Shown one piece after another: positions 13,997-24,610 of a DNA stretch of 24,680 bases. Position 1 is the stretch's first letter. Each line of letters opens with the position of its first letter. Origin of the DNA: Candidatus Baldrarchaeum yapensis (GTDB lineage Archaea > Asgardarchaeota > Baldrarchaeia > Baldrarchaeales > Baldrarchaeaceae). The stretch is taken from assembly GCA_016840465.1 (NCBI GenBank), contig JAEOSH010000030.1, positions 1-24,680 on the forward strand. The letters run 5' to 3'. The translations under genes and the position numbers were made by a program. Below the pieces are notes generated by a model. The model saw only the letters and a list, made by a program, of their open reading frames with translations, did no database searches and had not been told where the DNA came from.

Positions 13997-14494
13997 ATGG
14001 GTGTTGAGGGTTTAAAAATCGAAGTGGTGACTGTGGAAAAGCCAGAGGACGTTAATGTAATCATCGGTCAGTCTCATTTCATAAAGACCGTTGAGGACCT
14101 TTACGAGGCTCTTGCGGAGTCAGCGCCAAATATAAAGTTCGGGATAGCTTTTTGTGAATCTTCCGGTCCATGCTTAGTGCGAGTTGAAGGAAATGATGAG
14201 GAACTGAAGGAGTATGCGGCGAAAAATGCATTTAAAATTGCGGCTGGGCATTGTTTTATAATAATGATAAGGAACGCATACCCCATAAACGTCTTAAATA
14301 GAATAAAGCAAGTATCGGAAGTCTGTAGAATATTTTGTGCAACTGCAAATCCATTGCAAATAATAGTTGCGGAAACTGGTCAGGGGCGCGGGATTTTAGG
14401 AGTTATAGATGGCTATCGGTCGAAAGGTATCGAAAAGGAGGAAGATGTGAAGGAGAGGAAGGAGTTCTTGAGGAAGATAGGTTATAAACTTTAA
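13997..14494 (+). CDS. DUF355 / adenosine-specific kinase family protein
   Basis: [27 protein letters not shown] and [10 protein letters not shown] are family-typical motifs. Confidence 0.88.
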
Positions 14495-14528
14495 TAACGA
14501 TGAAGTGTAGAGATAACATGGTAACTAT

Positions 14529-14586
14529 GTGATGAGTCTAGCCCCAACTGAAGGCTCAAGCCGATGATGAGGATCTTGAGTGCTGA
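14529..14586 (+). ncRNA. Box C/D methylation-guide sRNA (double guide) targeting pre-tRNA-Leu
   Basis: C box GTGATGA 14529-35; guide GTCTAGCCCCAA; D' CTGA 14548-51; K-loop hairpin GGC-TCAA-GCC; C' ATGATGA 14564-70; guide GGATCTTGAGTG; D CTGA 14583-86. Both 12-nt guides are complementary to the tRNA-Leu gene at 24506-24610. Confidence 0.93.
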
Positions 14587-14890
14587 TAAGACGTAATGTT
14601 ACATATTGGAAATTATCGTTTATATCGATTTTCTACATGCTCTATTTTTGACGAACTACTTATTCAAGTCTTATTCTCCTTTCCTAACGATTTAATTGAA
14701 AATTCGATGATGGTTAACAAAAACTTGAAGCATATAAAAGATTGGAAAGAATGCACGATAATGGGCCAAAGAAGTATCATCAATATGACCCTTTAGGAAA
14801 TTAGAGCAAATAGGATCAGTCAAATGGCCGAAAATCTTTATATATCGCTGTTTATGGAAATCTGCTTGGAAATACAAAAGTACGGGGTGT

Positions 14891-23420: not shown

Positions 23421-23566
23421 TGGTGCCGGGGCCGGGATTTGAACCCGGGACCTCCGGATCTCTCAGATGGCAACCCTATGAGTTTCACCCGCCGATCTGA
23501 TAATCGGCAACCGGCGCTCTAACCAGGCTGAGCTACTCCGGCCGCGGGTATGCCGCGGTCCCCGGC
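23421..23566 (-). tRNA. tRNA-Met(CAT), elongator type, with three introns (7/8, 30/31, 37/38) and encoded CCA
   Basis: Removing 23536-23559, 23484-23510 and 23460-23476 gives a 78-nt cloverleaf, GCCGGGG-TAGCTCAGCCTGGTTAGAGC-G-CCGGA-CTCATAA-TCCGG-AGGTC-CCGGG-TTCAAAT-CCCGG-CCCCGGC-ACCA. Each junction fits BHB geometry. Confidence 0.9.
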
Positions 23567-23840: not shown

Positions 23841-24008
23841 GGGGCCGTAGTCTAGCCAGGTAGGACGGCAGAACCCTGGGTCTCAGGGTTCCGTTAAGGG
23901 CTCCAGAAGAGTGATCTACAACGGGTTTACCGACCGTACGGGATGAAGAACTTCTGGAGCGCTAGAGAAACCCGTTGATCGCGGGTTCAAATCCCGCCGG
24001 CCCCACCA
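23841..24008 (+). tRNA. tRNA-Trp(CCA) with two introns (28/29 and 37/38) and encoded CCA
   Basis: Removing 23870-23897 and 23907-23969 gives a 77-nt cloverleaf with anticodon arm GCGGG-CTCCAGA-CCCGT. Confidence 0.9.
23907..23969 (+). ncRNA. Intron-encoded box C/D guide RNA for C34 and C39 of tRNA-Trp
   Basis: D' CCGA (23930-33) preceded by guide CAACGGGTTT; C' GGGATGA (23940-46); guide CTTCTGGAGC followed by variant D CTAGA (23962). The D+5 rule lands on C39 and C34. Confidence 0.82.
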
Positions 24009-24028: not shown

Positions 24029-24156
24029 GGGGCCGTGGTCTAGCTTGGTATGATGCCAGTGCCGTAAATCTCACGGCGGTGAAGCTTGGGACCTGGTGGA
24101 CCGGAGGACGAGTCCTCCGGGCCAAATCCCGGGTTCAAATCCCGGCGGCCCCACCA
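24029..24156 (+). tRNA. tRNA-Pro(TGG) with two non-canonical introns (30/31 and 46/47) and encoded CCA
   Basis: Removing 24060-24083 and 24100-24126 gives a 77-nt cloverleaf (CCAGG-CTTGGGA-CCTGG; variable loop TGGTC). Central helices are TGCC/GGTG and TGGT/GCCA, with 3-nt bulges. Confidence 0.9.
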
Positions 24157-24204: not shown

Positions 24205-24278
24205 GCCGCCGTAGCTCAGCCTGGTGGAGCGGCGGGCTTGTAACCCGCCGGTCCCGGGTTCAAATCCCGGCGGCGGCT
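24205..24278 (+). tRNA. tRNA-Thr(TGT), intronless, CCA not encoded
   Basis: GCCGCCG/CGGCGGC acceptor, GCGGG-CTTGTAA-CCCGC anticodon arm, GGGTTCAAATCCC T-arm; TATA TTTTTAAA at about 24166. Confidence 0.96.
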
Positions 24279-24505: not shown

Positions 24506-24610
24506 TGGTGCGGGGGGTGGGATTTGAACCCACGCAGGCCTGCGCCAGCGGATCTTAAGTCCGCCGCCTCTGGACATCTAGCCCCATTGTCCGGGCTCGG
24601 CCACCCCCGC
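24506..24610 (-). tRNA. tRNA-Leu(TAA) with a D-loop intron (21/22) and encoded CCA
   Basis: Removing 24570-24586 (17 nt) restores the D-loop AGCCCGGACAAAGGC. Anticodon arm GCGGA-CTTAAGA-TCCGC; long variable arm. Confidence 0.92.

Follow-up and report, generated by a model that had tools for sequence, protein, structure and literature searches.

A box C/D sRNA gene of an Asgard archaeon with guides complementary to the anticodon loop and to the introns of the same tRNA precursors

The window analysed here, a stretch of 24,680 nucleotides (nt) from Candidatus Baldrarchaeum yapensis (assembly GCA_016840465.1, contig JAEOSH010000030.1, positions 1 to 24,680), carries at 14529-14586 on the forward strand (+) a canonical archaeal box C/D small RNA (sRNA), read from the sequence, whose two 12-nt guides are complementary to two sites in the same tRNA precursors (pre-tRNAs), one in the anticodon loop and one in an intron. 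Read in the 5' to 3' direction, it consists of a C box GUGAUGA (DNA GTGATGA; 14529-14535), the D' guide GUCUAGCCCCAA (DNA GTCTAGCCCCAA; 14536-14547), a D' box CUGA (DNA CTGA; 14548-14551), a 12-nt D'-C' spacer AGGCUCAAGCCG in which inspection shows a 3-bp hairpin to be possible (14552-14563), a C' box AUGAUGA (DNA ATGATGA; 14564-14570), the D guide GGAUCUUGAGUG (DNA GGATCTTGAGTG; 14571-14582), and a D box CUGA (DNA CTGA; 14583-14586), all on the + strand. A first-pass annotation of the window had proposed this double-guide architecture, and both the boxes and the two guides were recovered at the positions that it gave. The sRNA aligned end to end with the Rfam family snoPyro_CD (RF00095), the C, C' and D boxes lying within the alignment, at 35.8 bits (E 3.4e-6); this does not reach the gathering score of 45, and Rfam run at gathering thresholds returned no match at the locus. 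A genome search identified genes for fibrillarin (G000:C64:1307-1987, 349 bits) and Nop5 (C64:2098-2775, 259 bits), which stand side by side (G000:C64:1307-2775, minus strand) in the usual archaeal operon arrangement. Judged by its sequence features, the box C/D sRNA is almost certainly real.

The first of its targets is encoded in the same window, roughly 10 kb from the sRNA gene. Sequence inspection revealed a 102-nt tRNA-Leu(UAA) gene at 24509-24610 on the reverse strand (-), with CCA encoded just downstream, which went undetected by ARAGORN and Rfam because of its D-loop intron. This 17-nt intron, UGGGGCUAGAUGUCCAG (24570-24586, -, inferred splice sites), can be recognised by inspection from a bulge-helix-bulge with the helix GGAC:GUCC and the 3-nt bulges AAU and AGA, and its excision leaves the D-loop AGCCCGGACAAA, like that of the intron-less Leu isoacceptors of the genome. 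The D' guide pairs with 24586-24576 through 10 Watson-Crick pairs and a terminal G.U; the target, UGGGGCUAGAU (24576-24586, -), corresponds to nt 1-11 of the intron and abuts the inferred 5' splice site, with D'+5 falling on the G at 24583. The D guide is antisense to A31-C41, ACUUAAGAUCC (24550-24560, -), with 10 Watson-Crick pairs over 24560-24550 and a G.U pair in which U34 (24557), the nucleotide at D+5, faces guide G14578. Both duplexes had been described in the first-pass annotation, including the D'+5 guanosine, the placement of position 34 at D+5 and the G.U pair that becomes a perfect match in a CAA isoacceptor, and a pairing scan confirmed them in every detail. The target introns contain no C/D boxes, so the guide is not encoded in an intron of its own target, and the genes of the two further targets introduced below, tRNA-Ser(CGA) and tRNA-Leu(CAA), lie on other contigs.

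Specificity was assessed by scanning the whole 2.27-Mb assembly and a set of 46 pre-tRNAs (4475 nt). Only three sites in the genome offer the D' guide 10 contiguous Watson-Crick pairs, and two of them are tRNA introns, those of Leu(UAA) and Ser(CGA), the third (C61:29693) lying in coding-looking sequence. In tRNA-Ser(CGA) (G000:C86:14355-14484), which has a second intron in its D-loop, the D' guide pairs over 11 nt within the anticodon intron, and the D guide forms a duplex that enters this intron by 4 nt, with C34 in a Watson-Crick pair at D+5 and G35 in a G.U pair. In tRNA-Leu(CAA) (G000:C67:69828-69940, minus), the D guide forms 11 Watson-Crick pairs, with C34 opposite G at D+5, and a 28-nt intron between G30 and A31 holds GGGGCUA and matches the D' guide at 10/12 positions, 7 of them contiguous. 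The existence elsewhere in the genome of a tRNA-Leu(CAA) with the same arm and a similar intron had been predicted from the window: the identical arm and the GGGGCUA motif bear this out, but the intron shows two mismatches to the guide and is located at 30/31 rather than in the D-loop. The D' duplex is entirely intronic in all three precursors.

Among the 46 pre-tRNAs, the best three matches to the D guide are Leu(CAA), Leu(UAA) and Ser(CGA), and the best three matches to the D' guide are Ser(CGA), Leu(UAA) and Leu(CAA). Duplex free energies (dG, in kcal/mol, D'/D) amount to -21.1/-17.1 for Leu(UAA), -20.7/-16.3 for Ser(CGA) and -16.1/-19.3 for Leu(CAA), with medians over the 46 pre-tRNAs of -11.9 for D' and -9.5 for D. 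The energies of the two arms compensate each other, in that the weakest D' match occurs in the tRNA with the perfect D match, and imperfect anticodon matches go together with the strongest intron matches; the same ranking of D' and D matches was found in a sister family. When the D' guide was shuffled and compared with the same pre-tRNAs, an 11-nt run in at least one tRNA arose in 12/2000 cases and in at least two tRNAs in 1/2000, and the real guide has 11-nt runs in two tRNAs, both of which are D-guide targets too. A narrow and strict regular expression retrieved eight C/D candidates from the genome, among which only this sRNA matches an exon and an intron of one pre-tRNA, a result that does not establish uniqueness because the expression was narrow. 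The Ser(CGA) intron at 37/38 and the Leu(CAA) intron at 30/31, each of 28 nt, share GGGGCUA..CGUGA, which extends beyond the complement of the D' guide; from this similarity the two introns are probably paralogous, by intron transposition.

The sRNA is present in all four other genomes of the class (five in all), and the D guide GAUCUUGAG was found beside box motifs in 161/400 genomes of the phylum. Position N+5 of this guide is always G across the phylum, and the G.U pair with U34 of Leu(UAA) is consequently kept. At least eight Asgard families share the D' core UCU(A/G)(G/A)CCC, and the D' boxes of relatives are degenerate (CGGA, CAGA, CCGA). In the relatives within the class, the D' guide reads (G/A)AUCCAGCCCCA and the D-loop introns of Leu(UAA) hold GGGGCUGGAU(U/C); these sister-family guide and intron sequences mean that a U-A pair of the genome studied here is replaced there by C-G. 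The motif occurs in the same three tRNAs of the sister family, with a perfect match in Leu(UAA), G.U pairs in Ser(CGA) and one central mismatch in Leu(CAA).

Covariation was tested by pairing the D' guide of each genome with the tRNA-Leu(UAA) gene of that same genome, in 24 Asgard genomes from four families. Cognate guide and intron form 9-12 contiguous pairs in 24/24 genomes, and five columns of the duplex show more than one standard pair type (C-G/U-A; A-U/G-C; G-C/G.U/A-U; C-G/U-A; U-A/A-U), including, in one family, UCUGACCC/GGGUCAGA as a double change where UCUAGCCC/GGGCUAGA is usual. Compensatory changes at five positions thus bear out the guide-intron covariation in relatives to which the first-pass annotation had pointed. 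The intron that carries the D' target lies 5' of the anticodon, on the D-loop side, in three of the families and 3' of it, as an anticodon intron, in the fourth; a fifth family (G066), whose gene was recovered by a laxer search, has an 8-bp match in a 5'-side intron. In more distant families, BLAST searches for Leu(UAA) genes at E 1e-5 retrieved almost nothing. Genome G267 yielded only a Leu(CAA) gene, in which the motif is absent. The 24 genomes are related and their counts do not represent independent events, although the distinct compensatory types arise in different families. Contiguous runs and covariation were used in place of a mismatch-tolerant alignment score, which discriminates poorly, 11% of shuffled guides reaching the lowest cognate score. 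The persistence of the motif while the position of the intron changes is hard to explain, at the level of these sequences, without selection on pairing, and we consider it very likely that the D'-intron pairing is under selection.

Variations on this arrangement were observed in several relatives. In two genomes of one genus of another Asgard family (G015 and G014; loci L079 and L082, at about position 1501), the intron of an elongator-type tRNA-Met(CAU) holds AAGGGCUAGAU, the complement of the D' guide of the same genome; a search of these genomes for the exact Leu(UAA) anticodon-arm pattern gave no match, and a D-guide duplex with tRNA-Met would have C34 at D+5 and contain two mismatches. 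An intron tag of this kind may redirect the same small ribonucleoprotein (sRNP) to other tRNAs, such as tRNA-Met. The tRNA-Leu(CAA) genes of the sister family (L014, L025 and L032, in G004, G002 and G001) are 153-156 nt long and apparently contain three introns, the first on the D-loop side with GGGGCUCGAUC, a second near 30-32 of the anticodon stem and a third within the variable arm. At one locus of a further Asgard family (L223, in G134), the D guide is accompanied by C' and D boxes with no recognisable C box or D' guide upstream, which may represent a single-guide or rearranged form of the sRNA.

Within the window, the sRNA starts 35 nt downstream of an open reading frame (ORF) at 13997-14494 (+). 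An A/T-rich, TATA-like stretch, TTATAAACTTTAATAA (14482-14497, +), lies 32-47 nt upstream of the C box and overlaps the stop of this ORF; it is possibly the sRNA's own promoter, and the g2 homologues of the sRNA have ATATATTTAA at a similar distance upstream. The ORF itself encodes 165 amino acids with 60-70% identity to proteins in very many bacterial and archaeal metagenome-assembled genomes, an unusually high conservation across domains, and a search for related loci with this ORF, conserved as it is across bacteria and archaea, yielded no synteny information. The tRNA-Leu(UAA) gene belongs to a cluster of five tRNA genes between 23424 and 24610, comprising 23424-23542 (-), 23841-24005 (+, 165 nt), 24029-24153 (+, 125 nt), 24205-24278 (+, Thr UGU) and 24509-24610 (-, Leu UAA). 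Four of these genes are interrupted by at least one intron, and some of the introns occupy non-canonical positions. Of the five genes, ARAGORN detected one and Rfam two in the window scan, with a third (24029-24153) in the whole-genome search.

Ribosomal RNA (rRNA) was considered as an alternative target for either guide and rejected. The best match in the 23S rRNA and in the assembled 3' part of the 16S rRNA reached at most 9.5/12 with internal mismatches, and none of at least 10 pairs was found, which settles for these sequences the concern of the first-pass annotation that both guides might match rRNA better. In relatives, the complement of the D' guide was found in tRNA introns, in the sRNA gene and at scattered coding-like sites, and none of its matches fell in rRNA; this includes the closed, single-contig genome G014 of another family. 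Complements within coding-looking sequence, UUGGGGCUGGAU and GGGGCUGGAU, were noted at G000:C81:4803 (-) and at the sister-family loci L190 and L196 (G001 and G003), one of them recurring in two sister-family genomes in seemingly the same gene. These coding-region matches are probably due to chance or to a protein motif.

From the sequence comparisons above, we propose that the sRNA serves precursor-directed 2'-O-methylation of the wobble nucleotide by two-point recognition, with the D' arm as an anchor, and we assign this reading a probability of about 0.6. In this reading the sRNA acts in trans and, assembled with L7Ae, Nop5 and fibrillarin, would contact each of three tRNA precursors at two sites. 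By pairing with A31-C41 of the anticodon loop, the D guide would place nucleotide 34 in the catalytic D+5 register, and the predicted products are 2'-O-methylcytidine (Cm34) in tRNA-Leu(CAA) and tRNA-Ser(CGA) and possibly 2'-O-methyluridine (Um34) in tRNA-Leu(UAA). The D' guide would bind the short motif GGGGCUAGAU, confined to the introns of these precursors, and because the D'+5 register shifts and the D' box is degenerate, this arm does not appear to be aimed at a conserved methylation site, so that the second duplex would act as an anchor and not as a methylation guide, adding affinity where the D duplex is imperfect. Methylation would take place on the unspliced precursor, the intron acting as an address tag for the sRNP.

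The manner in which the anchor works may differ with the position of the intron. Minimum free energy (MFE) folds were obtained for the Ser(CGA) precursor (z = -5.5) and for two Leu(UAA) precursors of another family whose introns lie at the anticodon. In these folds the D target pairs through its 3' part, AUCU, with AGAU...GGG of the D' target, so that each guide is complementary to one strand of the anticodon-intron helix. In such precursors the D' guide could capture the intron strand, and both guides together would unzip the helix, free the anticodon strand and present nucleotide 34. In precursors with a D-loop intron there would be no unzipping, and the D' duplex would add affinity and sit beside the 5' splice site. 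A more far-reaching version of this proposal, which we put forward tentatively and hold to be rather less probable than its negation, is that Asgard Leu(UAA) genes, joined in some lineages by the genes for Leu(CAA), Ser(CGA) and perhaps Met, have kept their introns as a tag for the second guide of one ancient sRNA. In that case wobble 2'-O-methylation would need the intron as a cofactor, with no productive engagement of the anticodon loop in its absence, and the tag would be kept as the intron moves between the D-loop, 30/31 and 37/38.

Several observations weigh against precursor-directed methylation. The D guide fits the spliced tRNAs too, so methylation need not require the intron and only the D' arm is precursor-specific. 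The idea in the first-pass annotation of a trans-acting double guide that holds the unspliced pre-tRNA with position 34 at D+5 accordingly survives in its core, and can be extended to Ser(CGA) and, more weakly, to Leu(CAA), but precursor specificity has to be restricted to one of its arms. In Leu(UAA), the tRNA with the best-conserved D' match, U34 faces a G at N+5. This position is reported to require a Watson-Crick pair, and where pairs of other types are conserved there, they have been read as interactions without modification (PMC6009581), so Leu(UAA) may be bound and not methylated. The D and D' target sites of Ser(CGA) are just 7 nt apart. The CGUGA common to the Ser(CGA) and Leu(CAA) introns indicates that common descent could explain part of the motif sharing. 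The sequencing runs recorded for positions 14380-14700 include no RNA run, only DNA from hydrothermal-vent and sediment metagenomes, and the assembly does not contain the first ~700 nt of the 16S rRNA.

Taken at face value, the situation in Leu(UAA) invites a reading in which the sRNA is mainly a chaperone or timer that holds the pre-tRNA open or shields the 5' splice site, and thereby orders folding and splicing, with Leu(UAA) left unmethylated and methylation limited to the C34 tRNAs or irrelevant. The phylum-wide G.U pair at N+5 suits this reading, since a conserved non-Watson-Crick pair there has been interpreted as a sign that the interaction counts for more than the modification itself (PMC6009581), as do the conservation of the D' match, which is best in Leu(UAA), and the start of the D' duplex at the first nucleotide of the intron, beside the inferred 5' cut site. 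However, Leu(CAA) has a perfect 11-bp D match with C34 at N+5, the classical arrangement of known guides for 2'-O-methylation of nucleotide 34 (Nm34) (PMC7994747). A second, U34-specific sRNA with A at N+5 (guide GAUCUUAAG beside a D box) was not found in this genome, so any need for Um34 falls on the sRNA described here. We regard a role mainly in chaperoning or timing as unlikely, and it is compatible with precursor-directed methylation.

The D' arm could also be a true methylation guide for an intron guanosine, which would mark or stabilise the excised or circularised intron or modulate its cleavage, and here the canonical D' box CUGA, C' box and 12-nt spacing, together with the Watson-Crick G-C pair at D'+5 (24583), are what such a guide would be expected to show. 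Relative to the CCC/GGG core, however, the guanosine met by D'+5 differs among the three lineages compared, the D' boxes of relatives are degenerate, as described above, and introns are discarded, so that a methyl group there is without obvious use; we consider methylation of the intron improbable. Still less probable, in our assessment, is a D'-intron complementarity devoid of function, produced by chance and by the shared ancestry of transposed introns, with the real D' target, if any, elsewhere. Across the genome some ten sites, mostly in coding-looking DNA, offer 11 contiguous pairs by chance when G.U is allowed, the paralogy of the Ser(CGA) and Leu(CAA) introns is real in that they share sequence beyond the guide complement, and a target could lie in the missing 5' part of the 16S rRNA. 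Yet this paralogy explains part of the similarity within the genome and not the covariation across families, where compensatory changes occur at five positions in four families and the motif outlasts relocation of the intron. The result of the pre-tRNA shuffle test (1/2000), the coincidence of D' matches with D-guide targets and the lack of any rRNA match in the closed genome G014 also speak against such an absence of function. Precursor-directed wobble methylation with an intron-binding anchor remains the reading that we prefer.

What keeps introns in the tRNA genes of archaea and eukaryotes has long been asked and seldom been answered concretely, the intron of tRNA-Trp, itself a guide, being the textbook archaeal case. 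In eukaryotes, modification of C34 of tRNA-Leu(CAA) depends on the intron, and Asgard archaea are the closest archaeal relatives of eukaryotes. The results here point to a second and different solution, in which the intron would give a methylation guide acting in trans a place to dock and the two would have co-evolved phylum-wide. If true, this would provide a selective reason for the retention of tRNA introns in the closest archaeal relatives of eukaryotes. It has been found for Pyrobaculum that ~80% of tRNA-targeting sRNAs have an orphan second guide, based on scans of mature tRNA sequences alone (PMC6009581); the orphan second guides belong to 115 Pyrobaculum sRNAs. The targets of many such second guides may have been missed because the target searches used mature tRNAs only.

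C/D-guided Nm34 formation in tRNA-Leu, intron-dependent Nm34 and dual guides for nearby rRNA sites are all known. A trans-acting sRNA whose second guide addresses the intron of the very precursor whose anticodon is addressed by its first is new relative to the literature searched, and full-text literature searches returned no description of a trans-acting guide complementary to a tRNA intron. In Pyrococcus, sRNAs are known for nucleotide 34 of tRNA-Leu(CAA), Leu(UAA), Met and Trp (PMC7994747). The sRNA described here is like these Nm34 guides in being a trans-acting C/D sRNA with a guide antisense to the anticodon loop, nucleotide 34 at N+5 and Leu isoacceptors as targets, a likeness of targets and geometry. 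Three of the four Pyrococcus guides act in trans, the guide for tRNA-Trp being the intron itself. Separate sRNAs serve CAA and UAA in Pyrococcus, with no described role for the second guide, whereas here one sRNA would serve three tRNAs and its second guide is directed at introns. To our knowledge, the Pyrococcus tRNA-Leu genes addressed by those guides have no introns.

Ziesche, Omer and Dennis (2004) reportedly found double-guide sRNPs to be at their most active when the substrate carries both sites in cis. Where two guides address nearby sites, this is believed to improve target identification and to stabilise the complex (Lui 2018, PMC6009581), and extra base-pairing aids methylation by small nucleolar ribonucleoproteins (van Nues 2011, PMC3116282). 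The arrangement described here resembles that of dual-guide sRNAs for rRNA, in that a second duplex, formed nearby on one substrate molecule, is believed to increase affinity and specificity or to chaperone folding, although those cases concern rRNA.

Intron-dependent, RNA-guided wobble methylation was reportedly described by Joardar in 2011. In haloarchaea and Euryarchaeota, a C/D guide within the intron of pre-tRNA-Trp directs formation of Cm34 and Um39, and the sRNA sR-tMet/sR49 that of Cm34 in intron-containing pre-tRNA-Met (PMC7994747, PMC2584109, PMC4033218). H/ACA sRNAs have been proposed for pseudouridine 35 of pre-tRNA-Tyr in Sulfolobales, and the system shares with ours the RNA-guided modification of the anticodon in an intron-containing precursor and differs from it in the class of ribonucleoprotein and in the modification (PMC2651775). 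With the pre-tRNA-Trp and sR-tMet systems, where a C/D ribonucleoprotein forms Nm34 before the precursor is spliced, the sRNA studied here has in common that intron sequence is part of the interaction between guide and target. In tRNA-Trp, however, the intron is the guide, and in tRNA-Met a single guide duplex forms on the precursor, whereas here the intron is a separate target of the second guide of a trans-acting sRNA. Unlike in the tRNA-Trp and tRNA-Met systems, this intron target lies up to ~25 nt from the methylation site and is found in a D-loop, 30/31 or 37/38 intron.

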